Assembly: GCA_016234405.1 (NCBI GenBank)
Contig: JACRCC010000002.1
Coordinates: forward strand, 1-62,745
From: Deltaproteobacteria bacterium
Lineage (GTDB): Bacteria; Desulfobacterota; GWC2-55-46
Direction: 5' to 3'
Length of the DNA: 62,745 nucleotides
Under the pieces are notes generated by a model, which did not search any database, was not told the origin of the DNA, and saw only the letters and a program-made list of their open reading frames with translations. Position 1 is the first letter of the stretch; every line of letters begins with the position of its first letter. The position numbers and the translations under genes were made by a program. Below are positions 15,813-46,871 of the stretch, in pieces.

Positions 15813-15816
15813 CAGT

Positions 15817-15871: not shown

Positions 15872-15887
15872 TCTGAGCTGTGGCTTG

Positions 15888-15912: not shown

Positions 15913-15962
15913 ATGAAAAAAGCGGCCGTCCATTGATTGTGAAAAGAGGAGGCAAGGTTTCC

Positions 15963-17198: not shown

Positions 17199-17204
17199 AG
17201 TTAA

Positions 17205-17313: not shown

Positions 17314-17784
17314 TTCATATCCATCGGCTCCAACACCGGAGACAAGTCCTTTAACTGCCGCAAGGCCATTGAACGCCTGTCCGAAAACCCGGCCATAGCC
17401 GTTGTCAAAAAAAGTTCTTTCTACGACACGCCGCCGTGGGGTTATAAAGACCAGCCCTCCTTCGTAAACGCGGCAATTGAAATTACGACAAGCCTCAGCC
17501 CCGGCGAACTCCTCGAAAATTTGAAGACAATCGAATCCGGCATGGGCAGGGTTGAGACCCTTCGTTGGGGCCCTCGCGTCGTTGACCTCGATTTAATCTT
17601 TTATAACGGCCTCATCATGGAGTCTGAGACGTTAACGCTCCCGCACCCATTGGCGCATGAGAGGGCGTTCGTGCTCGCGCCTCTATTGGAAATCGCGCCG
17701 GAGTTCGTTCATCCGGTCCTGAAAAAAACCGTATCGGAACTTCTTGCCGGGTTAAAAGACGTTGCCGGGTGCAGGAAGATATAA
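17257..17784 (+). CDS. folK: 2-amino-4-hydroxy-6-hydroxymethyldihydropteridine pyrophosphokinase (HPPK)
   Basis: AFISIGSNTGD, PPWGYKDQPSFVNA, RWGPRVVDLDLI, LPHPLAHERAFVLAPL. The start is ATG 17257 or 17263. The GTG at 17233 lies inside the repeat arm. Confidence 0.88.
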   Translation: MEMSKTATGHHGQRLRFTAFISIGSNTGDKSFNCRKAIERLSENPAIAVVKKSSFYDTPPWGYKDQPSFVNAAIEITTSLSPGELLENLKTIESGMGRVETLRWGPRVVDLDLIFYNGLIMESETLTLPHPLAHERAFVLAPLLEIAPEFVHPVLKKTVSELLAGLKDVAGCRKI

Positions 17785-31498: not shown

Positions 31499-31921
31499 AT
31501 GGAGCTATCCGCTAAAGAGTCCGGCAGGTGGTTGAGGCAGGCCGAATACGACCTCAAGACCGCCGAGTGGAACCAGCAGGGCGGGTTTTTCGCGCCCGCG
31601 TGCTTCTGGGCGCAGCAGGCCGCGGCAAAGGCCTTGCGCGCCTTTCTTTTCATGCGCGGCGAAGACGCGCATGAGACGCGCTCCGTGGCCGACCTCCTTG
31701 ACAGGGCGATTACCTACGAAGAGGCCTTCAGGGAATTTGCCGGCACGGGCACGTCCCTCGACATCTACTACAAGACCGCGCGATTCCCCGACGCCTTGCC
31801 CGGCGGCATACCGGCCGAGGTGATCACCTCAAAGGATTCGCGGGACGCCGTCAAGCAAGCCTCCGACATAGTTGCCCTTGCGGAGAAAAAACGGAAGGTG
31901 TATCTGCCGGAGAACTTTTAA
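31499..31921 (+). CDS. HEPN domain protein (orphan; no adjacent nucleotidyltransferase partner)
   Basis: 140 aa. The opening WLRQAEYDLKTAEW......FFAPACFWAQQAAAKALRAFL... is the typical start of HEPN (PF05168-like) helices. THSLxxLL-like region: HETRSVADLLDRA. Confidence 0.7.
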   Translation: MELSAKESGRWLRQAEYDLKTAEWNQQGGFFAPACFWAQQAAAKALRAFLFMRGEDAHETRSVADLLDRAITYEEAFREFAGTGTSLDIYYKTARFPDALPGGIPAEVITSKDSRDAVKQASDIVALAEKKRKVYLPENF

Positions 31922-32012: not shown

Positions 32013-32798
32013 ATGATGTCGGAAAAACTTACCCTGATAATCCCCTTTATCTTCGGCTCCGCAATCGGGAGTTTCCTGAACGTCTGCATATACCGCATAC
32101 CGGCGGGCATATCCGTAGTAACGCCGCCTTCGAGTTGTCCGTCGTGCGGCGCAGAAATAGCCTTTTACGACAACATCCCGGTGTTGGGATATATCCTGCT
32201 GAGGGGCAGGTGCAGGAAATGCGGCGCCCGCATATCAGCGAGGTATCCGCTTGTCGAGGCCGCAACAGGGGCGTTTTGCGCGGCGCTCTTCTATATCTTC
32301 GGTTTCAGCGTCGAGTTCTTCGCATACTTCGCCTTCGTGTCCGCCCTTATGGTCGTAACGTTTATTGATCTAAAACTCCAGATAATCCCGGACGTGATAA
32401 GCATCCCCGGCATAGGGGTTGGACTTATAGCGTCGTATTTCATGTCATCCGTCGGGCTTGTAAACTCGGCGGCCGGTTTTCTCCTCGGCGCGGGCTTTCT
32501 TTTCATTATAGCAATGGGATACCATTTTTTAACCGGAAAGGAGGGCATGGGTGGAGGGGATATAAAACTCTTGGGCATGATAGGGGCCTTTCTCGGATGG
32601 AGGGGCGCGGTGGTCACGCTCATCATCGGCGCGTTCGCCGGGGCCGTTGTCGGCGGCGTCTTGATGCTTAGATACGGCAAAGACGGCAAATACGCCATCC
32701 CGTTCGGCCCGTTCCTCGCGGCCGGGGCAATAGTCCATCTTTTCTTCGGCCCGCCAATCGTCTCGTGGTATATTGAAATGATTGCGGGTGGAGGTTAG
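32013..32798 (+). CDS. pilD: Prepilin peptidase / N-methyltransferase (A24 family)
   Basis: GSFLNVCIYRIP, the zinc-binding motif CPSCGAEI...CRKCGARI, and both aspartate motifs (IPDV..., GGGDIKLLGMIGAFLGW). Confidence 0.92.
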   Translation: MMSEKLTLIIPFIFGSAIGSFLNVCIYRIPAGISVVTPPSSCPSCGAEIAFYDNIPVLGYILLRGRCRKCGARISARYPLVEAATGAFCAALFYIFGFSVEFFAYFAFVSALMVVTFIDLKLQIIPDVISIPGIGVGLIASYFMSSVGLVNSAAGFLLGAGFLFIIAMGYHFLTGKEGMGGGDIKLLGMIGAFLGWRGAVVTLIIGAFAGAVVGGVLMLRYGKDGKYAIPFGPFLAAGAIVHLFFGPPIVSWYIEMIAGGG

Positions 32799-32808: not shown

Positions 32809-34362
32809 ATGAAAAAATCGGCGCTCGGCATACGAACTCAGCTTATAATTGGCACCGTGCTTCTGACCTCGGCAGGCATCGGCCTTGTGGGGTTGATGAG
32901 CATAAAGGCCGTCGAGATGTCTGCCGTCTACGCCAAGATGGACTCGGCTGAGAGACTCGTGAAGGTCTTAAACGCGGCTGCGCGGTCGCAATACGCGACC
33001 CACGGCGACAAGGAGTCCACGAGGGCCGCGGGCGCGCTCCTTAAAGAGGCGGGGATAAACGATTTTGAGTTCACGGACGGCAAGGGCGTTGTGTTCCAAA
33101 AAGAAGGGACGCTGCCGGAACACCTCGGCGCGGCCTTGCCGTTTGCAGGCGAGATAATAGTAAAGAGGGTCGGCGGAGGGATATTGTCGGGCCCCGGCGA
33201 AGCGCTCCACGTGATTGCGTTTTTCAACCCCGGCTCCGGCAGCGGGAGACTCAGGTTCGCCGTGAGCCTCAAGGGCGTCGCGGAAGAGATGTCGGGCATC
33301 AGGAATTTTCTGCTCGCCTACGTCTTGCTTGATTCGCTCATAATAATAATAACGGGGCTTTATTTTTTCTCGCGTCTTGTTGTCGGCCCAATAAAAAGGC
33401 TTGAAGTCGCCGCGACCCGGATAGCGTCCGGCAATTTTGGAGAGCGGGCGGAAGTTGGCGACGAAAACGAAATAGGCAGCCTCGCAAATTCTTTCAACAT
33501 AATGGCCGAGAGGCTCGAATCCAAGATAAATGCCCTTGAGCGTTTGAATGCGGAGCTTATCGCGGCTCAGGCGGAGTTATTGAAAACGTCCACGCTCGCC
33601 GCGGTCGGCAACCTCGCCGCCGGCATTGCGCACGAGGTGGGCAATCCCCTCGGCGCGGTGCGCGGCTACGTTGACATACTCGCAAAGGGCGGCCTTGAAA
33701 AGGACGAAGAGGCCGCGGTTATTAAAAGGGCATCTGCCGAGATTACGAGGATTGACGCGATAGTGAGGGAATTTCTCGAGGTCGCCAGACCCTCGAAGCC
33801 GACTGGCGAAACAGTCGAGGTCAACCGTCTTATCGAGGAGATTATTTCAACCGTTGCCGTTCAAAATGCCTTTGACGGCGTAAAGATAATATTTGAGCCG
33901 GACGGATATGTCCCGCCGGTTATAGGCGACGAAGGTAAGCTCAGGCAGGTCTTCATGAACATCCTTTTGAACGCCGCCCACTCGCTCTCATGCGCGGGGG
34001 TGAAGACCATAACGGTCAAAACATATTTTGACGGGCACGCGGAGACCGCTGAACGCGCTAAAAGTCTGCGCAGGCGCAAAGACGATCAAATGTTCGCCGC
34101 CTCAACATTGGAGAAACGCTGCGTGTTCGTCGAATTCAGCGATAACGGCCGCGGCATAGCGCAAGACGATTTGCCGAGGATATTCGACCCCTTTTTCACC
34201 ACGAAAGAGGTAGGCAAGGGCACGGGGCTCGGTCTTTTCGTGTCCCGCGCCATTATAAAGGCTTATGGCGGGGAGATTACGGTTGAGTCCAATGAAGGCG
34301 AAGGGGCGATATTTACCGTAGCTCTGCCTGCGCGCGCCGGTGATAAAGGGGATGGGGCATAA
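32809..34362 (+). CDS. Sensor histidine kinase (two TM segments with a periplasmic loop, HAMP, HisKA, HATPase_c), the partner of the downstream sigma-54 activator
   Basis: The H-box is LAAGIAHEVGNPL, the N-box is NILLNAAHS, and the G-boxes are DNGRGI and GTGLGLFVSR. A HAMP-like segment follows TM2. This is not the classical 6-TM PilS topology. Confidence 0.85.
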   Translation: MKKSALGIRTQLIIGTVLLTSAGIGLVGLMSIKAVEMSAVYAKMDSAERLVKVLNAAARSQYATHGDKESTRAAGALLKEAGINDFEFTDGKGVVFQKEGTLPEHLGAALPFAGEIIVKRVGGGILSGPGEALHVIAFFNPGSGSGRLRFAVSLKGVAEEMSGIRNFLLAYVLLDSLIIIITGLYFFSRLVVGPIKRLEVAATRIASGNFGERAEVGDENEIGSLANSFNIMAERLESKINALERLNAELIAAQAELLKTSTLAAVGNLAAGIAHEVGNPLGAVRGYVDILAKGGLEKDEEAAVIKRASAEITRIDAIVREFLEVARPSKPTGETVEVNRLIEEIISTVAVQNAFDGVKIIFEPDGYVPPVIGDEGKLRQVFMNILLNAAHSLSCAGVKTITVKTYFDGHAETAERAKSLRRRKDDQMFAASTLEKRCVFVEFSDNGRGIAQDDLPRIFDPFFTTKEVGKGTGLGLFVSRAIIKAYGGEITVESNEGEGAIFTVALPARAGDKGDGA

Positions 34363-34365
34363 CGG

Positions 34366-35727
34366 ATGAGACTTCTCGTAATTGACGACGAAGAGGCGAT
34401 GAGGCACATGCTCTCCATAATCCTCAAGAAAGAGGGTTATGAGGTTCACGTTTCCCCGGATGCGCTCCATGCGCTCTCGGCGATAGAGGCGGCAGGGGGC
34501 GGGGACTTTGATTTTATCCTCTGCGACATAAAGATGCCCCGCATGGACGGGCTCGAATTTTTGAAGGCCCTTAAAGACAGGGGTCTTCAATATACGGTTA
34601 TAATGATGAGCGCCTACGGCACGCTGGACACGGCCATAGATTGCATGAAGCTCGGGGCTTATGATTACATCTCCAAGCCCTTCAAGACGGACGAGATAAT
34701 CCTTACGCTTAAAAAGGCCGAGGAGAGAGAAAGGCTCAAGAGGGAAAATAAAAGGCTAAAAGAAGAGACCTGTGCCGAGTATGACATAAGGCGCATCGTC
34801 ACAAAAGATAAGGCGATGCTCGAAGTCTTGAAGCTCGTTAATAAGGTCTCCGGTTACGACACGCCCGTCCTCATAATCGGAGAGAGCGGCACCGGCAAGG
34901 AGCTTATAGCGAGGGCCATCCACGATTCGGGCGACAGGAAAAACGGGCCTTTTGTCGCCGTGAACTGCGGGGCGATTCCCGCGGCTCTCCTCGAGAGCGA
35001 ACTCTTCGGCCACGTAAAGGGCGCGTTTACCGACGCGCACAGGAATAAGGCCGGGCTTTTTCAGGAGGCCGACGGCGGGACGATATTCCTCGACGAGGTC
35101 GGGGAACTCCCGCTTCCGCTTCAGGTCAAATTCCTGCGCGTCCTTCAGGAAGGGGAGGTTAGAAAGGTCGGCGACACGAAGTCCGTAAAAATAGCCACGA
35201 GGGTCGTGGCGGCCACTGTGAAGGATCTGCGCGAGGAGATAAAAAAAGGCGCGTTCAGAGAAGACCTTTTTTACAGGCTCGACGTGGTCGAGGTGAACCT
35301 GCCGCCGCTCAGGGACAGGGGTGATGACATACCCGGACTTGCCGCGCACTTCATTGAAAAGTATTCAAAGAAATTCGGCAAACCCGTAAAGACCCTGCCG
35401 GAAGATGTATTGAAGACGCTAAAGGGATATTCGTGGCCGGGCAACGTCAGAGAACTTGAAAACGCCATAGAGCGCGCTATAATACTCGAGGAGACCGGCG
35501 TCATAAGAAAGGAGTCCCTTCCCATGGCGATGAAAGAGACGGGGGGCGTTTGCGCAATCCTTCCTTCGTCGTCAGACCTCTCGATAAAGAGGGCTTCCGA
35601 GGCCATTGAAAAGGCGCTCATTTCAAAGGCGCTTGCAAAGACCGGAAATAACAAAACCAAGGCCGCCGAACTCCTCGACATCAGCTTTCGCGCGCTTTTG
35701 TATAAGATAAAAGATTACGGACTGTGA
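34366..35727 (+). CDS. Sigma-54-dependent response regulator (REC plus AAA+ plus Fis-type HTH), PilR-like by context
   Basis: REC motifs are LLVIDDE and CDIKMP. Walker A is GESGTGKE. The GAFTGA variant is GAFTDA. ELFGH, WPGNVRELEN and the C-terminal NKTKAAELLDISFRALLYKIK are also present. Confidence 0.9.
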   Translation: MRLLVIDDEEAMRHMLSIILKKEGYEVHVSPDALHALSAIEAAGGGDFDFILCDIKMPRMDGLEFLKALKDRGLQYTVIMMSAYGTLDTAIDCMKLGAYDYISKPFKTDEIILTLKKAEERERLKRENKRLKEETCAEYDIRRIVTKDKAMLEVLKLVNKVSGYDTPVLIIGESGTGKELIARAIHDSGDRKNGPFVAVNCGAIPAALLESELFGHVKGAFTDAHRNKAGLFQEADGGTIFLDEVGELPLPLQVKFLRVLQEGEVRKVGDTKSVKIATRVVAATVKDLREEIKKGAFREDLFYRLDVVEVNLPPLRDRGDDIPGLAAHFIEKYSKKFGKPVKTLPEDVLKTLKGYSWPGNVRELENAIERAIILEETGVIRKESLPMAMKETGGVCAILPSSSDLSIKRASEAIEKALISKALAKTGNNKTKAAELLDISFRALLYKIKDYGL

Positions 35728-35729
35728 AA

Positions 35730-35786
35730 GTGTAGCTCAGGCCTTCAGGCCTGAGATTATCAGGGCTAAAGCCCTGAGCTACGCAC
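35730..35786. repeat. GTAGCTCAG double-hairpin element, copy 3 (inverted orientation), flanked by a perfect 28-nt direct repeat
   Basis: The element is gtGTAGCTCAGGCCTTCAGGCCTGAgattatCAGGGCTAAAGCCCTGAGCTACgcac. The flanks 35702-35729 and 35787-35814 are identical (ataagataaaagattacggactgtgaaa). Confidence 0.9.
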
Positions 35787-35877
35787 ATAAGATAAAAGAT
35801 TACGGACTGTGAAAAAAGTATTGAGTTTTAATTTGATGCCTAAACAAAAAAGATATGTAAATCAAGCTATTGCATTA

Positions 35878-35893
35878 GGGCACGGCAGTTGCA
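35878..35893 (+). promoter_or_regulatory. Sigma-54 (-24/-12) promoter
   Basis: GGGCAC-GGCAG-TTGCA matches TGGCAC-N5-TTGCW with correct spacing. It lies immediately upstream of the first pilin-like gene and downstream of a sigma-54 activator gene. Confidence 0.7.
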
Positions 35894-35907: not shown

Positions 35908-36438
35908 ATGAAAAACACCATGAATAAACCGGCTGCAAACTCAAAGGGATTTTCGCTCGTCGAGTTGTTGATAGTCGCAGCGCTTATCGGCATCATGACC
36001 GCCATAGGCGTCCCGGCGATGATCGGGCAGATGGCGCACATCAGGTTTACGAGGGACGCGAGGGATTTATCCGTTGCTTTTAGGGCCGCCCGCATGAACG
36101 CGATAGCCAAGAACGTGCGCTACGGCATTAATATTACACAGGGCGCGCCTGACGCTTACCAAGTGCAAACCTGCACCGATTCTCCGGCTCCCGCGCCTTC
36201 CGTCGCTTGCGCCGCTTGGGGCAACGCAGGGGGGCTTATTACGTTTTCAAGCAATAGCGATATCACTTCCCCGGCGGCCAGCATCAGGGTTGAGTTCCTT
36301 CCGACCGGCACCGCGGCCGTAACGGGGATAATGCCGCCGGCAACCAATATTGACATTAGGCTCGCTAACCCTTCGTCCGACACCGATCAGTTGACGATAA
36401 ACGTAAGAGCCGCAACCGGTAAGATTGCCGTAACATAG
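35908..36438 (+). CDS. GspH/FimT/FimU-family pseudopilin (minor pilin)
   Basis: The prepilin motif is ...NSKG|FSLVELLIVAALIGIMTAIGVP, with Glu at position 5. DARDLSVAFRAARMNAIAKN resembles the GspH/FimT core. ATG 35908 or 35920 is the likely start. The ORF-track start 35809 lies in the duplicated pilR tail. Confidence 0.7.
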   Translation: MKNTMNKPAANSKGFSLVELLIVAALIGIMTAIGVPAMIGQMAHIRFTRDARDLSVAFRAARMNAIAKNVRYGINITQGAPDAYQVQTCTDSPAPAPSVACAAWGNAGGLITFSSNSDITSPAASIRVEFLPTGTAAVTGIMPPATNIDIRLANPSSDTDQLTINVRAATGKIAVT

Positions 36439-36448: not shown

Positions 36449-37003
36449 ATGTTTACGGAAAAAGAAATTTTTAAAAGAGACGCGGCGCGGGCAGACTGTA
36501 AATGCAACGCGCCGGCAATGGGCGCCCTCGGTTTTTCCCTCGTCGAGGTGCTTATAGCCTTGACCATACTATCCATCGGGATTCTCGGCATAATGGGTCT
36601 CATCGGTACCAGCATCAATTCCGGCGCTTTCGCGCAGAACGCGTCGCAGGCCTCCAACGTCGCGCAGGACAGGATAGAGGCCCTGCAGAGCGTGGCCTTC
36701 GCGTCCGTGCATCTCTCGGACGCCGTGACCGCGCGCACGGATCTCCGAAGGACGTGCGGCGCGGCCACCGGCCCGGCGAATAGACCGGTCTACAGCTGCG
36801 TCCCCACGAACTCGATAACCGTTGGAACCGTTAACCCCAAGACCTACACATGGACTTACACCGTAACGTTTATAGACCTTGACGGCAGCACCGTGGCGGA
36901 CGAGTCCGACCGCCTTAAAAAGCTCGACGTTACGGTAACATACTGGAATTCTTTGTCACGAAGCAATAAGACTCTTACTCTGTCGTCGATGATAACCAAC
37001 TGA
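36449..37003 (+). CDS. pilV: PilV-like minor pilin
   Basis: ...G|FSLVEVLIALTILSIGILGIMGL is the characteristic PilV N-terminus. 184 aa. The start is ATG 36449 or 36518. Confidence 0.7.
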   Translation: MFTEKEIFKRDAARADCKCNAPAMGALGFSLVEVLIALTILSIGILGIMGLIGTSINSGAFAQNASQASNVAQDRIEALQSVAFASVHLSDAVTARTDLRRTCGAATGPANRPVYSCVPTNSITVGTVNPKTYTWTYTVTFIDLDGSTVADESDRLKKLDVTVTYWNSLSRSNKTLTLSSMITN

Positions 37004-37060: not shown

Positions 37061-40000
37061 ATGAAGACGACGGTTGCGGGCACATTCGCTTCACTCGGTG
37101 TAAACTCTGCGAAGGCGGGAGCGCCCCTTAAGCAATCTTATCTTTCGAGGGGGAGCGGTTTCACGCTTATAGAGTTGTTGATAGCCATATTCATCTCTGC
37201 AATCGTGGCCAGCGCGATATATTCGGTCTACATCACCTTCTACAAGCAGACCGCTGCGCAGGACCTCATTGTCGAGGCCCAGCAAAACGCCCGCGTGGGC
37301 ATAAACCTGATGGAAAGGGAGCTTATAAACGCCGGTTATAACGCGGGTACGACCAACGTCATAACCGTAGCTACATCCACTTCCGTTCAATTCCTCTACT
37401 CGGAGCCTAACGATCCCGGCGCATCGAGGATCAAGGTCACCTACAATTACGACTCCGTCAATAAGACCCTTTTGCGTACGGAAGATGACACCACGCTCGG
37501 CACCTTAGGCGCCGCGAACATAGTCATCCCAGACGTAACCGGCGTTGAGTTTGCGTATTATGACGCAAACGGGCTTACTACCGCCGTGCTTAACGATATC
37601 AGGTATGTTAACATAAAGCTCACCACCGAGACGAAAGACATCCCGCCGGGGGCCGCGGCCAAGAAGCAATTTGCATTAGAGACCCATCTGCGGCTGCGCA
37701 GCTTAGGCACCGGCGCGGCGGCGTCGTCCACCTCGGATACTACCGCGCCCGCGGCCCCAACCGGGCTACAGGTAAGGGAGGTGGCCAACCCGTCCGGTCT
37801 GGGCGGCGGCAGCTGCGGAAAACTCAAGGTCAAATTCACCGGTTCGCCTGACGGCGACGTCATCGGCCATAAGATATATTACGGCACGACCTCCGGCTCG
37901 TATGACGGGGTGATCAACGTCTCGACAACCGCGTTGACCGGCGCTGATTACAGCTGCACCAATACCGCCAACGTCTACGAGTGCACCCTTGCCCCTTCAA
38001 ATCCCGCTCTCTCCCCGACGGTGTCGTACGACAGTTCTACGTCCGTGCATGCCCCTTCAACGGCCGTAATTTATTACTTTGCGGTAAAGGCCTATGACTA
38101 CAACATGAACTATAGCCCCTACTCCACTGAGGCTTACGGAGATACATCTACGGCCACCATAGCGGCGAGCAACACAACGTTCGATGCAGGTTTAAACGAT
38201 TCCACCGTGAATCCGGGTAAACCCGGCGCCGTAACCGGCCTTACCGGAGCAGACGGGACCGCCGACGGCACGACCAACCTTTCATGGACGGCCTATCCTA
38301 CGGCCTCTAATCCCGGCGTCACGCAGTTGGCCATTTATAGGAGCACGTCTGCCTTCACGTATCCGATAAGCTCGTCTTTAGAGATAGCCGCCATAACCTC
38401 ACCCGGGTCAACTACCACGTATGCCGTTTCAGGTCTGACGGGATGCCAGCAGTACTATTACGCGATTGCGGCCGTCAACTGCGACCCGACGCTCATAACG
38501 GTTGACTCCGGCGACACGGCAAGCGAACAGTATGCGGCGGCCAACTACGGCGTGGCTTACGGCGACGGGACAGGCTTGGGCGTTGATTCCCCGGCCGGGG
38601 CCGATACATATCCTCCCGATATCACGCCGCCCACGGCGCCTACGCTCCTCACGAGAAACGGCGAGATAATCGTCGGCTATAAGCGCGTGTATATGGGCGT
38701 AACAAATCCAACGGAGACGGATTTTACCCATACGCTCGTCTATTACAACACGACCGGCCCATCCCCTTCGGTGGATACCACGCTCGGCAGCCCGACTTAC
38801 GGGCAGATTTCCGGCGGCTTAGCCGTGCCAGACACCAACGTCTCGGTTCCGGGTAAGTTGACCGGGGCAGGCAGGTATATCACCTATGTCCATGACAACG
38901 AGCAGAACGCAGGGAACACCTTCTATGAAAGCATAAGCGCGATGCACGCCCCGGCGCTCACCAGCACGCAATATTTCTACACGGCGGTGTCTTACGACAG
39001 GTGCGGCAACCCGGCCGTTGCCACCGGCAATACGCCTGCCCTCGCGTCTCTTTGCGGAGACGGTCTCCCGGGAGACCCTGAGTACGGCCCGCCGTCCTCT
39101 ATCCCGCCCATCAACCCGTTGGTGAAGGGGTGCTACTCAAACGACTACAGCTATAATGTTACCTTCAACTCAAAAACCGTCAACGCGAATAAAGTGCCCA
39201 TGACGATTACGTGGGATGACAATCCCTTGCTCAGCGCCATTCCCGACGCCGCCATGTACAGAGTCTACAGGTCCCCGTCTGCGCCTTTTGATACAACGGT
39301 TTTCCCTAATACCCTTGATACAACCTTGTGCAGCGCTTCACCGGCTTCCACATGCTTTCTCGGTTTCGTCCCGGTGGGAACCACCAACTCGATCATTGAC
39401 AACAACAGCCTTACGGACTCAGGGACGACTAAATACTCTTACGGGATAGTCGCGACCGACTGCACCTATGAAGAGCAGTGGATACCCAACGCAGCGGCTG
39501 CGTATAAGTTTAATACGTCGGGATGGTTGACCGATGACGGCGTGGATGGCATCGGCGTTACCCCCGGCATGATTGACAGGGACGAAAAGTTGAACGTTAC
39601 CGACGACACCCACAGGGAGGTCTTGACCGGCGTTGACATGGACAATTCCATTGGCACCGGCACCGGAGCTTCCACGCCGTCCACGGCCTACAAGCACAAT
39701 ACCGTAACGTTGTTTTTGGAGAATACGGCAAACGGACCGCAAACCCTCGATGGCGCCACGGCGAGCTATTTTTACTGGGGCAATTCGTCGGCAAGGCTCA
39801 CCAACGTCGCCGTCGGCGGCGGCATGAGCACAATCGCCGTGACGAGCATCGCGGTGCCTATGTCGTCAAACTTCGTCAATTCCGGCACATTCACGAGGAG
39901 GGCATCAACGACCCTCGGGAACATCCAGCTGCCGGCGAATACGCGAAACATCCCCATGGTCTTGACGTTCACGGACAAGAACGGCAATCCGATTGACATG

Positions 40001-41740
40001 AGGAACGACCTAATTTCCATAAGACTCATAATCATCAACAACTCGACCAACACAACTTCCACCAATCCCATCTGCTACGCTTATGCGACCGTGTCGAAGA
40101 TTGCCACAGGAACGACGATACCCCTTGGCCCGTCCGTTAACGGCGTTACGCAGAATAATCCGTCTACCCCGACATTCGTATACGCCGTTCCTGGCTCGTC
40201 CGGCTCAAACAACACCGTGCCGACCAGCGGAGGCACGGCCTACGGCCCAGTGGTAGCCCTCGGCGGAACGTCTACGGTTATTACGGCCAACATCACCTCC
40301 AACACGCTTTACGAGCCGACGAGGGGCAGCGTGTCAATGTCTTCTGCCGCCTTGTATTACATAGACACCGCGCTTACCGTGGGCACGGCGCCAACAAGCG
40401 GCTATACCGCGGTTACGATGACCAACACCACAGGCAACACGTGGACGGGCGCCATACCTTCTTTAACCGACCGCAGGTTCTGGTTCTATGTAATTGCCGT
40501 TGATTCGGACGGTAACTACGACAGGGCGCCTGAGATTAACGAGGGCGCGTATACCTACGACCAGAGACCGGTCGGCATTTGCGACTTAACGCCGGTTGCC
40601 CCCGCGTCCTTTGGGCAGTTGGCCGCCGCCACGGCCACGACGGTTTCCGTCAAGTGGCCTAAGGTTACCGCTTACACGAGCGGGGCGGTCATTGACAAGA
40701 CCGCCGACCCCATCTTTTACAGGGTTTTTAGGCGCAGCACCCTCACGGGTTCCTTCACGAAGCTCTTTGACGTGCCTGACATCGCCGTCAACTCATGGAC
40801 CTCCGTAGCCGCCGGAAGTTTAGTAACGCCGGCCACGGCCTCGGTCTACTCGTGCAACGGCACTGCCGTCTTTAACGCCACGACCGGACTTGCCGCAGAC
40901 GAGTGCGGATGGAAGGATACCGTCGCCAGCACCTCCGGCACAAATGACTTTACGTACTACGTGCAGGCCAAGAATTCGTGCGGCGCCGACACCAACTTAG
41001 GGGCGAGGACCAACTACTGGAGGGAATGTGTCGGCTCGACTACTGCCGCGATAAGCGTCTCTCCCACGTCCATAAGCACCAACGGTTCCTATACCGTAAC
41101 CGTCAACGACTGCGGTAAGTTCGGCGGAGCCGCAGACACTGTTACGGCTAAAAGTGTCTCCAACCTTGGGTCTACGAACTTCTACACGAACATGTCGGAA
41201 GACTCCAATAACACGGGTCTCTTTACCGCGAGCATATTGGCTCAAAATATCGGGGCCGCGAATACGACCGGGGTCTATGCGGTTCCCACTAATATCGCCA
41301 ACGCCACCGTGACCGTATCCTGCCCGTCTACGGCAGGGACCGGTCCGACGACATATCCCTGCTCGGGCGGCGCGTCCACGACGGTAACCGTGAAGGCGCG
41401 GGTGTGCGATTTTTCGCCGAGCACTATCACCACGCTTACGGCCACGAAGAAGACCTCCAAATGCGACGGCTCAAACAACTCCTCAAAGGGCATCCAATTG
41501 GCATGGTCAACGCCCTCGGATACCGACCCTCCGACCTACAATATATGGGCAAGAACCGGCGATACGGGGACATGGGCTGACATTTCAGGCTCGCTGGCCG
41601 CCGGCACTACGAAGTACTGTGACGCGAGACCGGCGTCTAACCCCGGCGTGTATTATTACTACAAGATCGTCGCAGCCGACACATGTCCGCTCAGCAGCAC
41701 TTCGGCCATTACACCGGGGGCGCCCGGTATAAAATACTGA
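37061..41740 (+). CDS. Giant modular minor pilin: an N-terminal PilW-like prepilin domain (about 210 aa) fused to about 1,350 aa of T/S/N/G-rich FN3-like repeat modules
   Basis: The class III signal is ...SRGSG|FTLIELLIAIFISAIVASAIYSV. The PilW-like core runs from QQNARVGINLMERELINAGY to LRLRSLG. At least 6 modules follow with an FN3-like pattern (P-x-AP at entry, YR/YY core, YYFAVKAYD / YYYAIAAVN / YFYTAVSYD / YSYGIVATD / YYVQAKNSCG / YYYKIVAAD at exit). It is a single uninterrupted ORF. Confidence 0.75.
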   Translation: MKTTVAGTFASLGVNSAKAGAPLKQSYLSRGSGFTLIELLIAIFISAIVASAIYSVYITFYKQTAAQDLIVEAQQNARVGINLMERELINAGYNAGTTNVITVATSTSVQFLYSEPNDPGASRIKVTYNYDSVNKTLLRTEDDTTLGTLGAANIVIPDVTGVEFAYYDANGLTTAVLNDIRYVNIKLTTETKDIPPGAAAKKQFALETHLRLRSLGTGAAASSTSDTTAPAAPTGLQVREVANPSGLGGGSCGKLKVKFTGSPDGDVIGHKIYYGTTSGSYDGVINVSTTALTGADYSCTNTANVYECTLAPSNPALSPTVSYDSSTSVHAPSTAVIYYFAVKAYDYNMNYSPYSTEAYGDTSTATIAASNTTFDAGLNDSTVNPGKPGAVTGLTGADGTADGTTNLSWTAYPTASNPGVTQLAIYRSTSAFTYPISSSLEIAAITSPGSTTTYAVSGLTGCQQYYYAIAAVNCDPTLITVDSGDTASEQYAAANYGVAYGDGTGLGVDSPAGADTYPPDITPPTAPTLLTRNGEIIVGYKRVYMGVTNPTETDFTHTLVYYNTTGPSPSVDTTLGSPTYGQISGGLAVPDTNVSVPGKLTGAGRYITYVHDNEQNAGNTFYESISAMHAPALTSTQYFYTAVSYDRCGNPAVATGNTPALASLCGDGLPGDPEYGPPSSIPPINPLVKGCYSNDYSYNVTFNSKTVNANKVPMTITWDDNPLLSAIPDAAMYRVYRSPSAPFDTTVFPNTLDTTLCSASPASTCFLGFVPVGTTNSIIDNNSLTDSGTTKYSYGIVATDCTYEEQWIPNAAAAYKFNTSGWLTDDGVDGIGVTPGMIDRDEKLNVTDDTHREVLTGVDMDNSIGTGTGASTPSTAYKHNTVTLFLENTANGPQTLDGATASYFYWGNSSARLTNVAVGGGMSTIAVTSIAVPMSSNFVNSGTFTRRASTTLGNIQLPANTRNIPMVLTFTDKNGNPIDMRNDLISIRLIIINNSTNTTSTNPICYAYATVSKIATGTTIPLGPSVNGVTQNNPSTPTFVYAVPGSSGSNNTVPTSGGTAYGPVVALGGTSTVITANITSNTLYEPTRGSVSMSSAALYYIDTALTVGTAPTSGYTAVTMTNTTGNTWTGAIPSLTDRRFWFYVIAVDSDGNYDRAPEINEGAYTYDQRPVGICDLTPVAPASFGQLAAATATTVSVKWPKVTAYTSGAVIDKTADPIFYRVFRRSTLTGSFTKLFDVPDIAVNSWTSVAAGSLVTPATASVYSCNGTAVFNATTGLAADECGWKDTVASTSGTNDFTYYVQAKNSCGADTNLGARTNYWRECVGSTTAAISVSPTSISTNGSYTVTVNDCGKFGGAADTVTAKSVSNLGSTNFYTNMSEDSNNTGLFTASILAQNIGAANTTGVYAVPTNIANATVTVSCPSTAGTGPTTYPCSGGASTTVTVKARVCDFSPSTITTLTATKKTSKCDGSNNSSKGIQLAWSTPSDTDPPTYNIWARTGDTGTWADISGSLAAGTTKYCDARPASNPGVYYYYKIVAADTCPLSSTSAITPGAPGIKY

Positions 41741-41804: not shown

Positions 41805-43265
41805 GTGAACGTCATGAACGCAAAAAGTCTCAATGTCATCCTGAGCGGAGCGAAGGATATGCTTCTGGTTGTCATTCTGAGCGCATCGCAACGCTTCAGC
41901 GTAAACTCCGCGAAGAATCTGATTTTCGCTCAGAATAAACTCCGCAGTGAAAAGGGCTTTATCCTCATTCTCGCGCTCGTCTCGATGGTGGCCATGAGCA
42001 TCATCGGCATAAGCCTCATAACTAACATGACGACCGACGTTCAGCTTGCGGGCAACGAACGTCAGGGTAAGGTCGCCTTCGAGTATGCCGACGCGGGTAT
42101 AAACGAGGGCATGGCCCGTCTAAGGCTCAGCGTCGCCAACGCGAGATACGTCGGAGAGCCGGCCAACACGCCGCTCTATAGGACGAGCGCCGTAGTTTTG
42201 ACCAATCCCACCTTTAACAGTACGGGTACATTTAATAACACCGGAGACGCCGTTCAACACTACTCCGTAACGACGTCGTATCTCATCGAGGGGATGCCGT
42301 ACTGCGACAGTAACTCCCTATCCGTGCCTAATATCGCCAGCAATACGCCCGTTAATGCCACAACGGGCGCGCCGGACCCTCAAAATTGCAACAGCGAGGT
42401 GGTGATGTTCGGCAAGGACTTCAACTTCCCTTCGACGCTCACCTCGTTATCAATAGGGACGAACCCCATATACAGGATAGTCTCGGTCGGCACATACGGC
42501 ACCACTACGAGGACGATAGAGGCATACGTCGGCAGGAGCACCCTTAACCTTGACCCCGGCGCAGCCGCCAATCTCAACGGGTGCGCGACGTTGAGCGGTT
42601 CAAAGGCCGAACTTGAAGCCGAAGGCGGCGCCAGTGTTCCGGGACTCCAATACCTCGGCGCATGCGCGGGCGGCGGAAATATGGTAAACGCGACGAACTG
42701 CCCCACGGTTGACACCGGCAACGGAAAGGTTGAAGGCGGTTGTGTCGCTAAAACAAGCTCGACCAACCTTAATACGTATCTTGGTAAAAGCCTTACGGAT
42801 GTAAAGACCCTTGCCACGCTGACTCTTGACTGCAATTCGGTTGCGACTTGCGCTAACGTGATAAGCGGCCCCGCCAACACGACCGCGATATGGGGCGATT
42901 GCGCTGGGGGGACATCTTCCGCGCTCAGATATGTAACCAGCACGAACCCCGTTAATCTTTCGAGCGGCGACTTGCCTTCCGGGTGCGGCAGGGGAGTGCT
43001 TGTAGTTGACGGCGGGAGTTTAACCATAGGTCCGAACGTAGAGTGGCAAGGGCTTATCTACGTCGTGAGCGGCGACGTTACCATGAACGGCGGCGGCGGC
43101 AATTCAGAGGTCAAAGGCGGTATTATGGCTGGCGGCAACTTGAGCCTTAACGGCGGCGGCGGCCCGGAGGCCGAGATTGAGTACGACGCCCAGATATTGT
43201 TGGACGTCGCCAAACAGATTAACAACGGAAGTTTTTCCACCTTGGTGCTCTGGAGGAGGTTGTAA
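41805..43265 (+). CDS. pilX: PilX-like minor pilin / pilus assembly protein (PilX_N domain), unusually long
   Basis: EKGFILILALVSMVAMSIIGISLITNMTTDVQLAGNERQGKVAFEYADAGINEG matches the PilX N-terminal domain pattern. The C-terminus is GG-rich. The first roughly 45 codons are encoded by repeat elements, so the true start is uncertain (ATG 41805, 41814 or 41859). Confidence 0.65.
   Translation: MNVMNAKSLNVILSGAKDMLLVVILSASQRFSVNSAKNLIFAQNKLRSEKGFILILALVSMVAMSIIGISLITNMTTDVQLAGNERQGKVAFEYADAGINEGMARLRLSVANARYVGEPANTPLYRTSAVVLTNPTFNSTGTFNNTGDAVQHYSVTTSYLIEGMPYCDSNSLSVPNIASNTPVNATTGAPDPQNCNSEVVMFGKDFNFPSTLTSLSIGTNPIYRIVSVGTYGTTTRTIEAYVGRSTLNLDPGAAANLNGCATLSGSKAELEAEGGASVPGLQYLGACAGGGNMVNATNCPTVDTGNGKVEGGCVAKTSSTNLNTYLGKSLTDVKTLATLTLDCNSVATCANVISGPANTTAIWGDCAGGTSSALRYVTSTNPVNLSSGDLPSGCGRGVLVVDGGSLTIGPNVEWQGLIYVVSGDVTMNGGGGNSEVKGGIMAGGNLSLNGGGGPEAEIEYDAQILLDVAKQINNGSFSTLVLWRRL
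41835..41936. repeat. GTCATYCTGAGCG...GCGAAG(G/A)AT repeat cluster (VILSEAKNL-type elements)
   Basis: The cluster contains gtcatcctgagcggagcgaaggatatgc (41835-41862), gtcattctgagcgcatcgcaacgc... (from 41871) and an inverted partner cgctcagaat (41927-41936). Related copies lie at 43514-43541 (inverted), 43789-43813 and 62711-62738. Confidence 0.75.
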
Positions 43266-43492: not shown

Positions 43493-43588
43493 CCGTGATA
43501 TCTTAAGCAAGAAGCAGATCCTTCGCTTCGTTCAGGGTGACAGTTTTAGGCCGATACCGGCGTAACCTGAGACCAAGGTGGATGTGAA

Positions 43589-43795
43589 ATGAAGAAAAAT
43601 AACAACTATCTGAAAAAATACAGAGAGAATATGCTCCTCAGTAAAGCGGAGCTTGCAAGGAAGGCCGGGATATCGGCCCTGACCATAGACCGGATAGAGC
43701 ACGGGTATCCGTGCAGGGTGGACACCAAGAGAAAGATTATTCAGGCCCTCGGTCTGAAACTCGCGGAAAAGAACAAGGTCTTTATCAACTGCTGA
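43589..43795 (+). CDS. XRE-family helix-turn-helix transcriptional regulator (68 aa)
   Basis: LSKAELARKAGISALTIDRIEHG is a canonical Cro/C1 HTH. The gene is AT-rich. Its TGA stop lies inside a GCTGAGCGAAGCGAAG repeat. Confidence 0.75.
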   Translation: MKKNNNYLKKYRENMLLSKAELARKAGISALTIDRIEHGYPCRVDTKRKIIQALGLKLAEKNKVFINC

Positions 43796-43838
43796 GCGAA
43801 GCGAAGCATCTGCTTTTCGTTGTTTTGTCGTTGCGAAG

Positions 43839-43937
43839 TAGGTTGGGTCAAGCGCAGCGGACCCAACACATTAGGTTGGGTCAAGCGCAGCGGACCCAAC
43901 ACATAATGTTTGATGGGTGCGCTTTGCTTCACCCATC
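43839..43937. repeat. Tandem hairpin repeats: a 33-nt unit x2 (perfect) plus a third diverged hairpin
   Basis: taGGTTGGGTCaagcgcagcgGACCCAACacat occurs at 43839-43871 and identically at 43872-43904. GATGGGTGcgctttgcttCACCCATC follows at 43911-43936. Confidence 0.9.
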
Positions 43938-43990: not shown

Positions 43991-45055
43991 ATGGCATTTT
44001 CGCTTTTCAAGATAAAAGAGACCGTAGCCTTTGACATAGGCTCCAATTCCATCAAGCTCGTGCAGATGGGCCAGAGCAAGAAGGGCTGGGAGCTCCAGAA
44101 GTTCGGGTTTGCGGAGTTGCCCCCGGAGGCCATCGTTGACGGCTCGATAATAGACTCGATGACCGTCATCAATACGCTCAAAGACCTCATCAAGGAGAAC
44201 GGGATAAAGCTCAAAAACACCGTCTCGTCCCTTACCGGCCACTCCGTCATCATAAAAAAGGTCGCCTTCCCGTCCATGACCGAGGATGAATTGGCCGAAT
44301 CCATACAGTGGGAGGCCGAGCAGTATATCCCCTTCCCGATAGCCGACGTGAACATTGATTTTCAGATACTCGGCGCAGACACCGAGGGCAGGGGGCAGAT
44401 GGACGTCATGCTCGTGGCCGTCAAGAAAGACGTGATAAACGACTACACCAACGTCTTGAAAGAAGCGGGCCTCACGCCCGTGGTGGTGGACGTGGACTCC
44501 TTCGCCATAGAGAGCATGATGGAGATAAACTACCCGGTTACCCCGGGAGAGAATATCGCCATAATAAACATCGGGGCGAGCATCACGTCCATAAGCGTCA
44601 TCATGGGCGGCATGACGGTTTTTACGCGGTCAATCCCCATGGGCGGAAACCAGTTCACCGAGGAGATCCAAAGGCAGCTGAACATCAGCTTCAAGGATGC
44701 CGAAGACTTAAAGCTTGGGAGAAAAGACGCGGGCGCGGACGCCGAGGCATTGAAGGCCGCGATAACGAGCATCGCCACGAACATCTCCTTCGAGGCCAAG
44801 AGGTCGCTTGATTTCTTTCTCGGCGGAAGTCAGAACGCTTATGTAGGCAAGATATATTTGAGCGGCGGAGGGAGTAAATCCGCCGGTCTTTTGGCGATAA
44901 TGCAGGAAAAGACCGCCGTGCCCGTGGAAATCGTGGATTCCTTCAAAAGCATTGCCGTAAACCCAAAACGCTTTGACGCGGAAAAGATGAAGACGCTGTC
45001 CCCGCTTTTCGGAGTGGCGGTCGGGCTTGCCACGAGGAGGCTCGGCGACAGATGA
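43991..45055 (+). CDS. pilM: Type IV pilus assembly protein PilM (actin-like ATPase fold)
   Basis: 354 aa. ...VAFDIGSNSIKLVQM..., the arrangement upstream of pilNOPQ, and an ATGA overlap with pilN. Confidence 0.9.
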   Translation: MAFSLFKIKETVAFDIGSNSIKLVQMGQSKKGWELQKFGFAELPPEAIVDGSIIDSMTVINTLKDLIKENGIKLKNTVSSLTGHSVIIKKVAFPSMTEDELAESIQWEAEQYIPFPIADVNIDFQILGADTEGRGQMDVMLVAVKKDVINDYTNVLKEAGLTPVVVDVDSFAIESMMEINYPVTPGENIAIINIGASITSISVIMGGMTVFTRSIPMGGNQFTEEIQRQLNISFKDAEDLKLGRKDAGADAEALKAAITSIATNISFEAKRSLDFFLGGSQNAYVGKIYLSGGGSKSAGLLAIMQEKTAVPVEIVDSFKSIAVNPKRFDAEKMKTLSPLFGVAVGLATRRLGDR

Positions 45056-45651
45056 TAAGGATAAACCTCCTGCCCGCAAGGGCCGAGAAGAAAAAAGAGA
45101 GCACAAGACTGCAGTTGATGATAGCCGGCGGTGTCACAGTCATCGTGCTTCTTGTATCTTTTGCCGTATATTTATACGAAATGAGCGAGGCGTCCTCGCA
45201 ATCTTCCAAGATAACTTCCGCGAAGGCCGAGCTTGAAGTCCTCAAGGGTAAGATAGGCGAGCTCTCGAAGATAGAGCAGCAGAAAAAGGTGGTCGAGGAA
45301 AAACTCAACATCATCAAGAGCCTCGAGGCCGCCAAGACAGGGCCTGTAGACCTCTTTAAGTTGATAGGCGACGCCATGCCTGAGAGGGCGTGGCTCAAGT
45401 CGTTGAAGGATGACGGCAAGACGGTATCCCTCACCGGTTTCGCGGTTAATCAGGAGGTCATGTCGGACCTCATGAAAAACCTCCAGAGGCACAAGGGTTT
45501 TTCCTCCGTGGACCTCATTATTGCTCAGGTGATCTCTGAAGGTGAGACCAGGAGTGAAGTCGTGAGTTTTGATCTCAAACTCAACAGGGTTGCCGCCGGA
45601 GAAAAGTCCAAGGACAAGGGGGGATTACCCCCATCGAAGGAGAAGAAGTAG
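45052..45651 (+). CDS. pilN: Type IV pilus assembly protein PilN
   Basis: MIRINLLP... N-terminus, a single TM, a coiled coil, and its position. Confidence 0.88.
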   Translation: MIRINLLPARAEKKKESTRLQLMIAGGVTVIVLLVSFAVYLYEMSEASSQSSKITSAKAELEVLKGKIGELSKIEQQKKVVEEKLNIIKSLEAAKTGPVDLFKLIGDAMPERAWLKSLKDDGKTVSLTGFAVNQEVMSDLMKNLQRHKGFSSVDLIIAQVISEGETRSEVVSFDLKLNRVAAGEKSKDKGGLPPSKEKK

Positions 45652-46281
45652 ATGGCTTTCGCCTTGCCCAAACAACTCAACCTCGACGTGATACTCAAGC
45701 TGCCGGTTAAGCAGCGCGTTGGCGTACTCGCCGCGATAAACGCCGTTATATTGGGGCTGATATTCTACTTCCTTACGCTGCCGCAGGTAACGGAAATCTC
45801 GACGCTCAAGGAAGAAATCGCCAAACTCGACGTTCAGCTCGAAAACGACAGGCGGATAGCCGCCAACATTCCCAAGTACATTCAGGACAAAGAGGACATG
45901 GAGAGAAAGTTGACGGAAGCCCTTACGCAGCTTCCCAACGAAAAGGAATTGCCCGAACTCATTGACAGCATCAGTATCTCGAGCGAAAGATCCGGACTCA
46001 AGATACTTATCTTCAAGCCCGGCGCGGACGTGATGAGGGGTTTTTACGCCGAAGTGCCGGTAAATATGTCCGTGCAGGGCAGGTTCGAGAGTCTGCATGA
46101 TTTCAGCGTGAAGGTCGGGGCGCTCAAGAGGATAGTAAATATCGCCAATTTGGATGTTATGTCGGAAGGGCACAAAAACAAGGTGCCGGGCATCAGGGCG
46201 AATTTTGTAGCCACGACTTTCAGGTTCATTCCAACGCCGAATGCGCCGCCCGCCCCAACGGGCGCGGGGGAGAAGAAGTAA
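45652..46281 (+). CDS. pilO: Type IV pilus assembly protein PilO
   Basis: A TM segment plus coiled coil plus a ferredoxin-like C-domain, ...LPNEKELPELIDSIS..., and its position between pilN and pilP. Confidence 0.85.
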   Translation: MAFALPKQLNLDVILKLPVKQRVGVLAAINAVILGLIFYFLTLPQVTEISTLKEEIAKLDVQLENDRRIAANIPKYIQDKEDMERKLTEALTQLPNEKELPELIDSISISSERSGLKILIFKPGADVMRGFYAEVPVNMSVQGRFESLHDFSVKVGALKRIVNIANLDVMSEGHKNKVPGIRANFVATTFRFIPTPNAPPAPTGAGEKK

Positions 46282-46805
46282 TGCCCAGCGGGTTATTTAA
46301 AAAAATATTGTTCCCAGCCGCGGTAGTCTTGTTGTTGACCTCCTGCGGGCAAGAGAGCGCGCCGCCTCCCCCGCCGGTTAGGAAGGCCGCCGTAAAGCCG
46401 GTGGAAGCCGCGCCGGGAGTTGATAAGACAGCCGGCGTTCAACCGACTGCGGCTGCGGTTAAATTGCGTAATCCCTTTTTGAGCTATATTATAGTAAGGC
46501 GTGAGACTGAGGGGGTGGATATAAAGGCGGTAAAGGGGCCTCTCCAGTGCTGTGATATTTCGGTATTCAGGATTCAGGCCGTTAAGACCGGCGGGGCTAA
46601 ACCAAAGGCCGTGGTCCTCGCCCCTGACGGTAAGAGATACATGGTAGGTATCGGCGATGCCATCGGCATGATGGACGGGAAGATAATCAAGATTGACGAA
46701 AACGGGATGATGGTCAAGGAGTTTACGAAGGACCCCGATGGAAAGGTTATTTTAACCAATGACGTTGCGATAAAGCTGCATCCGGATGTGTCGAAGCCAA
46801 AGTAA
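46281..46805 (+). CDS. pilP: Type IV pilus assembly lipoprotein PilP
   Basis: The lipobox is LLLTSCG. A Pro/Ala-rich linker and a C-terminal beta-domain (DGKRYMVGIGDAIGMMDGKIIKIDENGMMV) are present. Its position supports the call. Confidence 0.8.
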   Translation: MPSGLFKKILFPAAVVLLLTSCGQESAPPPPPVRKAAVKPVEAAPGVDKTAGVQPTAAAVKLRNPFLSYIIVRRETEGVDIKAVKGPLQCCDISVFRIQAVKTGGAKPKAVVLAPDGKRYMVGIGDAIGMMDGKIIKIDENGMMVKEFTKDPDGKVILTNDVAIKLHPDVSKPK

Positions 46806-46871
46806 TAATGCCGGTTGCAGACGGGCGTTTTTGCGTTTACCGGTTTTTTCAAGGAGAACATGGAGGTCGTC

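Follow-up and report, generated by a model that had tools for sequence, protein, structure and literature searches.

A 62,745-nt (62.7-kb) stretch of a Deltaproteobacteria bacterium genome (assembly GCA_016234405.1, contig JACRCC010000002.1; the whole stretch analysed is called the window here) encodes at 37061-41740 (+) a protein of 1,559 amino acids (aa), giant PilW, in which a pilin module is followed by about ten predicted beta-sandwich domains. We propose, with a probability of roughly 60%, that giant PilW is a genuine PilW-family minor pilin of a type IVa pilus (T4aP) that has been extended into a tip adhesin stalk replacing the adhesin role of PilY1. Because PilW carries some ten fibronectin type III (FN3)- or Ig-like domains and no PilY1 gene was found near the operon, it is probable that the pilus displays an adhesin built into one of its own pilins. 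The new support for a tip-adhesin role is comparative. Searches covering the window and, in relatives, flanks of at most 10 kb to either side placed a PilY1-like gene near operons with small PilW and small PilX and near no operon with giant PilW, a distribution that suggests such a role.

Gene integrity and PilW homology

The open reading frame (ORF) runs unbroken from an ATG at 37061 to a stop codon at 41738-41740, as a first-pass annotation of this DNA had stated, and a Shine-Dalgarno sequence (GAGGT) lies 7-8 nt 5' of the ATG. A long T/S/G-rich ORF in an apparently metagenomic assembly could be an artefact, either an assembly that is collapsed or chimeric, or a fusion of at least two genes by a sequencing frameshift; modular proteins tend to repeat collapse, and one relative, P0087, does hold many near-identical tandem FN3 units. 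In the window gene, however, BLASTP of the ten modules against one another gave no significant protein repeats and DNA repeat finding gave short chance matches only, and we rejected repeat collapse on these grounds. The modules appear, from their sequences, to have diverged anciently from one another. Some 30 collinear full-length orthologues (1,418-1,515 aa, 35-57% identity), conserved along their whole length, occupy the same syntenic operon slot in independent assemblies from independent samples, and a protein identical to giant PilW (P0001) is present on a separate, independent Logan contig. Given these syntenic orthologues, a repeat-driven, chimeric or fused assembly is excluded for practical purposes, which removes the worry of misassembly raised in the annotation and leaves the artefact a negligible probability. 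GC content is uniform over the locus, on which account we also considered and set aside horizontal acquisition, and Pfam matches of the window genes describe an ordinary chromosome.

Giant PilW begins with a 33-aa leader peptide ending in Gly33 (37061..37159, +), with cleavage predicted before Phe34, whose codon starts at 37160. The motif, SRGSG/FTLIELLIAIF with the slash at the cleavage site, has Gly-1, Phe+1 and Glu+5; it matches Pfam N_methyl (PF07963, residues 32-54, 30.1 bits against a cutoff of 21.2) and TIGR02532 (25.3 bits, cutoff 16.3), in agreement with the earlier description of a textbook prepilin signal with Glu5. Leader length and sequence are poorly conserved among giant PilW proteins. 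Structures were predicted with AlphaFold2 on the family alignment in two halves, aa 1-820 and aa 811-1559. The pilin module (aa 34-215; 37160..37705, +) is modelled as an alpha1 helix (36-89) packed on an antiparallel beta-sheet, with eight beta-strands between residues 101 and 211 and a predicted local distance difference test score (pLDDT) of ~80-91, so that the N-terminal region forms a confident predicted pilin fold (pLDDT ~80-90 overall). A low-confidence linker (aa 216-224) joins it to the first FN3-like domain, at about residue 225.

Neither PilW nor FN3 identity could be assigned directly, because Pfam and NCBIfam searches with the whole protein returned only N_methyl and sub-threshold pseudopilin matches dominated by the N-terminus. 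The weak best match of the pilin module was PRK10557 (24.3 bits, cutoff 120), which we take to correspond to Escherichia coli PpdB; GspJ (TIGR01711) scored 19.1 bits against a cutoff of 64.85. Two ordinary pilins, from genomes that represent their species, provide the connection. A 252-aa protein of a Desulfobulbaceae metagenome-assembled genome (MAG) (L033:9917-10675) and a 227-aa protein of a Syntrophobacter MAG (L035:10007-10690) pass Pfam PilW (PF16074) at 32.8 and 27.9 bits (cutoff 26), and aa 28-216 of the window protein align with them at 31-33% identity over 191-226 aa (E 2e-24 and 2e-21). Among 1.84 billion cluster representatives, a search with a pilin-module profile also finds ordinary pilins of 190-245 aa that match end to end. 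In PDB sequence searches the same profile found generic pilin N-termini only, with no GspJ or PilW structure, and the whole protein gave one chance match; Foldseek yielded no structural comparison with GspJ or PilW, since FN3 matches swamped the list for the N-terminal half. On the transitive homology to PF16074-passing proteins, together with operon context, we accept the module as a member of the PilW family (GspJ/PilJ-type), though the direct Pfam test fails. The PilW-type pilin of the first-pass annotation thus stands as to modelled fold and homology, and not as to the PF16074 model itself.

The operon context is highly consistent. The gene order is secA-argJ-HEPN-pilD-sensor kinase-sigma-54 response regulator-GspH-like-PilV/GspI-like-giant PilW-enlarged PilX_N-small helix-turn-helix (HTH)-pilMNOPQ-aroCKB, and the same structure recurs in every relative with a fetched contig, including those encoding versions of 2,871, 3,653 and 4,445 aa. 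Prepilin peptidase (pilD) and assembly machinery (pilMNOPQ) are therefore encoded with giant PilW. Best NCBIfam matches of the minor pilins, sub-threshold, follow the canonical H-I-J-K order, as expected of a four-gene minor-pilin operon in which giant PilW would be the J subunit; the PilW gene takes second place, not third, in L033 and L035.

This context bears on the idea that giant PilW is not a pilus subunit at all, its prepilin N-terminus serving as a PilD-processed anchor or export signal for a chain that stays in the envelope or on the cell surface, as a pseudopilus-displayed or envelope-spanning protein. Giant PilW is known from sequence and not from localisation in pili, source annotations of its relatives are generic and inconsistent (prepilin-type domain protein, PulG, PilE, PilW, hypothetical), and large PilW appendages can jam the T4aP machine (PMC7541494). 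Yet the module comprises a full predicted pilin fold homologous to PilW, which is more than a signal; it keeps Glu5, typical of assembling pilins; and in every relative it is embedded between I- and K-type genes in an operon directly 5' of pilMNOPQ. We consider a non-pilus role quite improbable.

A beta-sandwich extension and its family

The extension (aa 221-1559) is rich in T, A, S and G (T 15.2%) and poor in K (2.5%), R (2.2%) and E (1.6%), a composition noted in the first-pass annotation, as was the abundance of Cys: all 24 Cys residues of giant PilW lie in the extension, and many are invariant across the family. AlphaFold2 predicts ten beta-sandwich domains in it overall. Four FN3-like domains, B1-B4 (aa 225-362, 385-480, 521-662 and 675-810; 37733..39490, +), come first, B1 and B2 modelled well and B3 and B4 with lower confidence. 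They are followed by a central module of ~350 aa, B5-B7 (aa 826-1172; 39536..40576, +), with pLDDT mostly 80-93 and the invariant motifs RD...H, DMR and W..D..GN.DR.P. A profile search found no sequence relative of this central module in the PDB, BLAST recognises it in a 1,100-aa relative (P0077), and its conservation points to a hallmark of the family. Three distal FN3/Ig-like domains, B8-B10 (aa 1175-1304, 1320-1430 and 1439-1559; 40583..41740 with the stop codon, +), complete the protein. The C-terminal half as modelled (aa 811-1559) is all-beta, with six sandwiches, a mean pLDDT of 74.6 and a predicted template modelling score of 0.55. Six aromatic-rich FN3-like motifs had been picked out by eye in the first-pass annotation, and they fall in B1, B2, B3, B4, B8 and B10.

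Foldseek comparisons with the PDB point to the same architecture. For the first half the matches include the fibronectin FN3 arrays Fn7-10 and Fn7B89 (E ~5e-10), and for the second half contactin, FN3/Ig chains of cytokine receptors and complement MG domains (E ~3e-10), with gp130 and the leptin receptor among the top matches. The models thus resemble tandem arrays of seven-stranded FN3 beta-sandwiches, with B5, B6 and B9 probably better called generic Ig-like sandwiches. No propeller, lectin, vWA or enzyme fold occurred among the Foldseek matches of either half. At the sequence level, 7 of 31 orthologues score above the Pfam fn3 cutoff (best E 6.7e-9) in regions corresponding to B1, B8 and B10, and the fn3-like Ig_RIMBP2 model matches 11 of the 31 at E<=0.01. 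Profile searches of the kind proposed in the first-pass annotation therefore detect N_methyl in the window protein, PilW and fn3 not, and fn3 only in some orthologues. Most of these domains escape Pfam thresholds, and domain-signature surveys consequently give too small a size range for modular pilins.

Giant PilW is conserved to a roughly even degree over its length, B4 and B8 being the most variable domains. Since the extension equals the pilin module in conservation, with invariant Cys, Trp and Tyr throughout, it is best understood as a folded, selected structure. The PilY1 beta-propeller has no counterpart in the protein: there is no Pfam match to PF05567, no propeller fold match and no tblastn similarity to the PilY1 of L033. 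We also considered a PilY1-like C-terminal plug peptide, and set it aside because the tail resembles an ordinary FN3 G strand that is divergent, and not conserved, in the window protein. We also rejected a role in haem binding or of the nanowire type, the CxxCH motif being absent.

Giant PilW has many relatives of similar or greater length. We surveyed the 150 best representatives (50%-identity clusters) of the pilin-module profile search, and their lengths are bimodal: 87 have 150-260 aa, and 42 have at least 1,000 aa, 31 of these falling between 1,300 and 1,700 aa. The "extreme case" of the first-pass annotation accordingly holds against characterised pilins, the largest highlighted of which has 860 aa, but not in metagenomes, where this is a common size. 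The architecture is recurrent and sits in the same slot, in an uncharacterised family; the literature searched contained no description of it. Proteins of 2,871, 3,653 and 4,445 aa occupy exactly the operon slot of giant PilW. The whole 1,559-aa architecture is collinear with their first ~1,450-1,590 aa, and further FN3-like modules are added C-terminally. P0075 (4,445 aa; L005 8001-21338) is the longest pilin-module protein among those found here. P0087 (3,653 aa; L006 6857-17818) ends in many near-identical tandem FN3-like units starting CDALPxAPTGVVYNYTD, and its true repeat count is uncertain because these units come from a short-read assembly. About 24 species-level MAGs carry a giant PilW, all of them labelled Deltaproteobacteria or Thermodesulfobacteriota and many from groundwater. 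Judged by these alignments, the window protein appears to be the basal, typical form of a sizeable uncharacterised family rather than a singleton.

PilX, PilY1 and the proposed tip stalk

The minor-pilin gene next to giant PilW is itself enlarged. The PilX/GspK-like protein of the window (41805..43265, +; Pfam PilX_N, weak NCBIfam GspK match) has the signal SEKG/FILILAL, which lacks Glu5, and a Gly-rich, repetitive C-terminal region (GGGGNSEVKGG...NGGGG). PilX proteins of giant loci (426-448 aa in orthologues, 486 aa for the window ORF) are conserved over their full length and resemble small PilX at the N-terminus only.

Three combinations of PilW, PilX and PilY1 occur among the fetched loci. 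All four of L033-L036 (two Desulfobulbaceae, Desulfocapsa and Syntrophobacter) have an ordinary PilW, a small PilX and a PilY1-like gene after the operon; in the two PilY1-encoding loci that were scanned with Pfam, PilX measures 185 aa (L033) and 211 aa (L035). The window and ~28 other giant-bearing loci have a PilX of 426-486 aa, and neither tblastn with the L033 PilY1 nor Pfam listings revealed a PilY1-like gene in the window or the flanks of these loci. Finally, L008 pairs an ordinary 215-aa PilW with a large, 415-aa PilX, and no PilY1-like gene was found nearby. The L033 PilY1 used as the query passes PF05567 and has a VWA domain; tblastn with this Pfam-validated protein matches only the four loci having small PilW and small PilX, the L034-L036 counterparts being related to its propeller. 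A large PilX (415-486 aa) therefore co-occurs with the lack of a nearby PilY1 whether PilW is giant or ordinary (L001, L003, L006-L008 and others).

Two of these loci hold further large proteins. In L035 a 1,913-aa protein is encoded after pilX (11875-17616) and has no Pfam match at E<=0.01; its C-terminal part is 22% identical to the L033 PilY1 propeller (tblastn, E 4e-13), and a Desulfobulbaceae protein of L036 matches the 1,913-aa protein at 45% identity. From these similarities the L035 protein appears to be a divergent PilY1 missed by Pfam. In L008, two proteins of 778 and 340 aa with no recorded Pfam match are encoded at 8414-11779, ~1 kb 3' of pilX, and might constitute an unrecognised tip-associated factor.

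According to Ellison et al. 2026, the last beta-strand of PilY1 completes the PilX/PilK sheet in trans, and in systems without PilY1 the strand comes in cis from an enlarged K subunit (PMC13533445). The PilX and PilY1 pattern of the window and the other giant loci fits this model. L008, in a comparison resting on a handful of loci, further suggests that PilY1 loss and PilX enlargement came first and that PilW was extended later, restoring a large tip-exposed module.

We propose the following mechanism. PilD would remove the 33-aa leader, and the hydrophobic alpha1 helix would keep giant PilW in the inner membrane. The pilin module would then join the GspH-like, PilV-like and enlarged PilX-like subunits of the adjoining genes in a priming or tip complex, the enlarged PilX supplying in cis the beta-strand normally donated by PilY1. 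As PilMNOPQ extend the pilus, the tip complex would exit through the secretin, and the ~1,340-aa, disulphide-containing chain of ~ten domains would project as an adhesive, mechanically robust stalk, taking the adhesin role of PilY1 in the giant-PilW lineage. Estimated from typical FN3 size, the stalk would measure ~35 nm if fully extended, and several-fold more in relatives of 2.9-4.4 thousand aa; its length may have been tuned between lineages by the addition of FN3 modules.

Several observations weigh against this proposal. The window protein matches neither Pfam PilW (PF16074) nor Pfam fn3 (PF00041) at E<=1. No recognisable ligand-binding domain (lectin, vWA or other) was found by Pfam, Foldseek or PDB sequence search, and adhesion consequently rests on analogy. 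All members of the giant PilW family come from uncultured MAGs or metagenomes. In Myxococcus xanthus, PilW3 tagged with the bulky superfolder green fluorescent protein (sfGFP) enters the machine and blocks its function (PMC7541494), and the proposal leaves unaccounted for how the periplasm would accommodate an appendage of 1,340-4,200 aa and how PilQ would let it through. PilY1 could also lie elsewhere in the genome, beyond the window and the flanks of at most 10 kb. Finally, L008 lacks a nearby PilY1, has a large PilX and keeps an ordinary 215-aa PilW, so that a tip without PilY1 can also do without the giant extension.

Some of the same evidence would suit a role in priming, plugging or gating, in which the conserved B1-B7 core takes over the structural jobs of PilY1 in the machine (keeping the priming complex stable, filling or opening the secretin, ending retraction) and the distal FN3 array is secondary. 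B1-B7 is kept across the family, and beyond it the number of domains varies, B8 is the most variable domain of the ten and relatives extend past B10; the failure to recognise a ligand-binding domain also agrees with such a role. M. xanthus PilY1 and large globular minor-pilin domains have been proposed to make up the stem and plug and to halt retraction (PMC7541494), and Ellison et al. 2026 propose that the PilY1 propeller speeds assembly of the tip complex or gates the secretin (PMC13533445). A plug, however, has no need of 10-40 tandem beta-sandwiches, the enlargement of the distal array, up to a protein of 4,445 aa, resembles an exposed stalk being tuned in length, and an L008-type system manages with a PilW of 215 aa and without a PilY1 nearby. 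We regard this role as unlikely to be the main one, and it would be compatible with adhesion.

The tip adhesin stalk remains our preferred interpretation. A broader version of it, which we offer tentatively as a possible but doubtful scenario, is that an uncultured Thermodesulfobacteriota lineage has rebuilt the T4aP tip altogether: PilY1 was lost, PilX became self-completing in cis and PilW became an adhesin with a length-tunable array of 10 to ~40 beta-sandwiches. A current question, framed in two recent sources, is how the large non-pilin PilY1/PilC stays on the T4aP tip and why it is needed for assembly (PMC13533445; bioRxiv 10.64898/2026.09.18.752573). The giant PilW family offers a natural counter-example, with no PilY1 nearby, an enlarged PilX and a core minor pilin bearing a predicted beta-sandwich stalk of 1,300-4,200 aa. 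If our proposal is true, the adhesin and licensing functions of PilY1 are separable between two different minor pilins, and the T4aP machine and its secretin can handle, in priming, export and retraction, a cargo of as many as ~4,200 residues held covalently on a core tip pilin. Such a cargo bound would be much higher than, and contrast with, the block caused by an sfGFP tag on M. xanthus PilW3 (PMC7541494). The family would then also offer a first molecular entry point to the way in which an abundant, uncultured groundwater lineage adheres to surfaces or to partners.

The pilus operon and comparison with known systems

A 140-aa HEPN-domain protein is encoded between argJ and pilD (31499-31921), a position kept in all relatives examined. 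Prepilin peptidase PilD (32013..32798, +; A24_N_bact and Peptidase_A24 by Pfam), which is expected to cleave the giant prepilin, has the same position in relatives. A sensor kinase (32809-34362, +; HAMP-HisKA-HATPase_c) and a sigma-54 response regulator (34366-35727, +), both identified by Pfam and in conserved synteny, form a PilS/PilR-like pair immediately 5' of the minor-pilin operon (32809..35727). After the minor-pilin genes, a 68-aa HTH_3 (Xre-type) protein is encoded (43589..43795, +; Pfam). All relatives examined have it in this place, with pilX before it and pilM behind, and it is a candidate regulator devoted to the pilus genes. The T4aP machine genes pilM-pilN-pilO-pilP-pilQ, the last encoding a secretin with AMIN domains, occupy 43991..49667 (+; Pfam); pilB, pilT, pilC and a major pilin gene were not found in the 62.7-kb window.

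Upstream of giant PilW lie genes for a GspH/FimU-like minor pilin, the H subunit (35908..36438, +; Pfam N_methyl and GspH, NCBIfam GspH E 1e-10, below cutoff), and a PilV/GspI-like minor pilin, the I subunit (36449..37003, +; N_methyl, best TIGR02523 PilV at 49.7 bits against a cutoff of 52.2, then GspI). The true start of the GspH-like gene is likely ATG 35908 or 35920 rather than GTG 35809. A candidate sigma-54 -24/-12 promoter, GGGCAC-N5-TTGCA (GGGCACGGCAGTTGC, then A), lies at 35878..35892 (+), ~16 nt 5' of ATG 35908 and directly after the sigma-54 activator gene. It is the sole match in the window at <=1 mismatch, where 3.3 are expected by chance, and is plausible only because of its position, which suggests PilR/sigma-54 control of the minor-pilin operon.

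The locus also contains several short repeats. A perfect 28-nt direct repeat, ATAAGATAAAAGATTACGGACTGTGAAA, occurs at 35702-35729, where it takes in the 3' end of the sigma-54 regulator gene with its stop codon, and at 35787-35814; the copies bracket a hairpin with 23-nt arms (35732-35782), and the interval 35702-35814 looks like a small insertion of the miniature inverted-repeat transposable element or repetitive extragenic palindrome (REP) type with a target duplication. The pilX-like and HTH genes are surrounded by three copies of a REP-like element of ~24-33 nt, GTCATCCTGAGCGGAGCGAAGGAT..., in inverted orientations (41834-41866, 43510-43542 and 43792-43815). The first overlaps the 5' end of the pilX-like ORF, and the real start is therefore probably downstream of GTG 41805, for example at ATG 41859. 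A perfect 33-nt tandem duplication, TAGGTTGGGTCAAGCGCAGCGGACCCAACACAT twice over, is found at 43839-43904 between the HTH gene and pilM.

Modular pilins are known as a class, N_methyl-FN3 proteins included. A survey by Raynaud et al. 2021 catalogued more than 1,200 modular pilins in 264 architectures; the N_methyl-FN3 combination (IPR012902-IPR003961) numbered 12 proteins, function not known, and the most extreme case singled out had 860 aa (PMC8179133). In Streptococcus sanguinis the modular pilins PilB (pilin and vWA) and PilC (pilin and lectin) replace J/K-type subunits and are adhesins (PMC8179133, PMC10191384). As modelled, giant PilW has the modular-pilin architecture in the sense of Raynaud et al. 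2021: a class III signal and pilin module ending at about aa 215, a short linker, and non-pilus-specific domains beginning with an FN3-like domain from about aa 225. In modular pilins the extra domains lie exposed at the tip and contribute function, as predicted in some cases and shown in others. Characterised modular pilins, in contrast, have a single added module, whereas giant PilW has ten domains in 1,559 aa and syntenic relatives of up to 4,445 aa. Unlike the S. sanguinis proteins, it would be the J-type subunit of a full H-I-J-K set in a diderm T4aP with a secretin, and it has a family-specific central module. What is new is therefore the scale, the carrier (a core J subunit of a full H-I-J-K set in a diderm), and the conserved ten-domain core with its family-specific central module, found together with an enlarged PilX and with no PilY1-like gene near the fetched giant loci.

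Giant PilW resembles PilY1/PilC, and MshQ of MSHA pili, in being large (1,000-1,900 aa for these proteins), modular and tied to an H-I-J-K operon, the others being thought to act as tip adhesins; giant PilW and a nearby PilY1-like gene never occur together in the fetched loci. PilY1 is a non-pilin with a C-terminal beta-propeller (PF05567) that attaches by giving its last beta-strand to PilX/PilK (PMC13533445), whereas giant PilW has no propeller, would be anchored by its own pilin module and has a C-terminus like an ordinary FN3 G strand. Pilin-like tip subunits with extra beta-rich domains for binding or tip function also include CofB/TcpB of type IVb pili, ComZ of Thermus, CpaL/TadG of Tad pili, and GspK. 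Those proteins are K-type, or specific to type IVb or Tad systems, have ~325-600 aa and often carry the insertion inside the pilin fold; giant PilW is J-type, is extended C-terminally by >1,300 aa and has a K-type neighbour that is separately enlarged. Its pilin module is homologous over its full length to ordinary PilW of Desulfobulbaceae and Syntrophobacter, and like these it belongs to an operon with GspH and PilX_N genes; its weak best matches are to PRK10557 and GspJ. Ordinary PilW, unlike the giant, ends after ~215-250 aa and is accompanied by a small PilX and a downstream PilY1-like gene.

Giant non-fimbrial adhesins, such as SiiE, the LapA/RTX-type proteins and Bap-like proteins, have long tandem stalks of Ig-like domains whose repeat number varies between relatives; they leave the cell by type I secretion and are tethered to the outer membrane. 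The similarly long beta-sandwich array of giant PilW is consistent with a length-tunable stalk of the same kind. Giant PilW differs from these adhesins in its prepilin signal and predicted pilin fold, with which it would ride on a retractile pilus.

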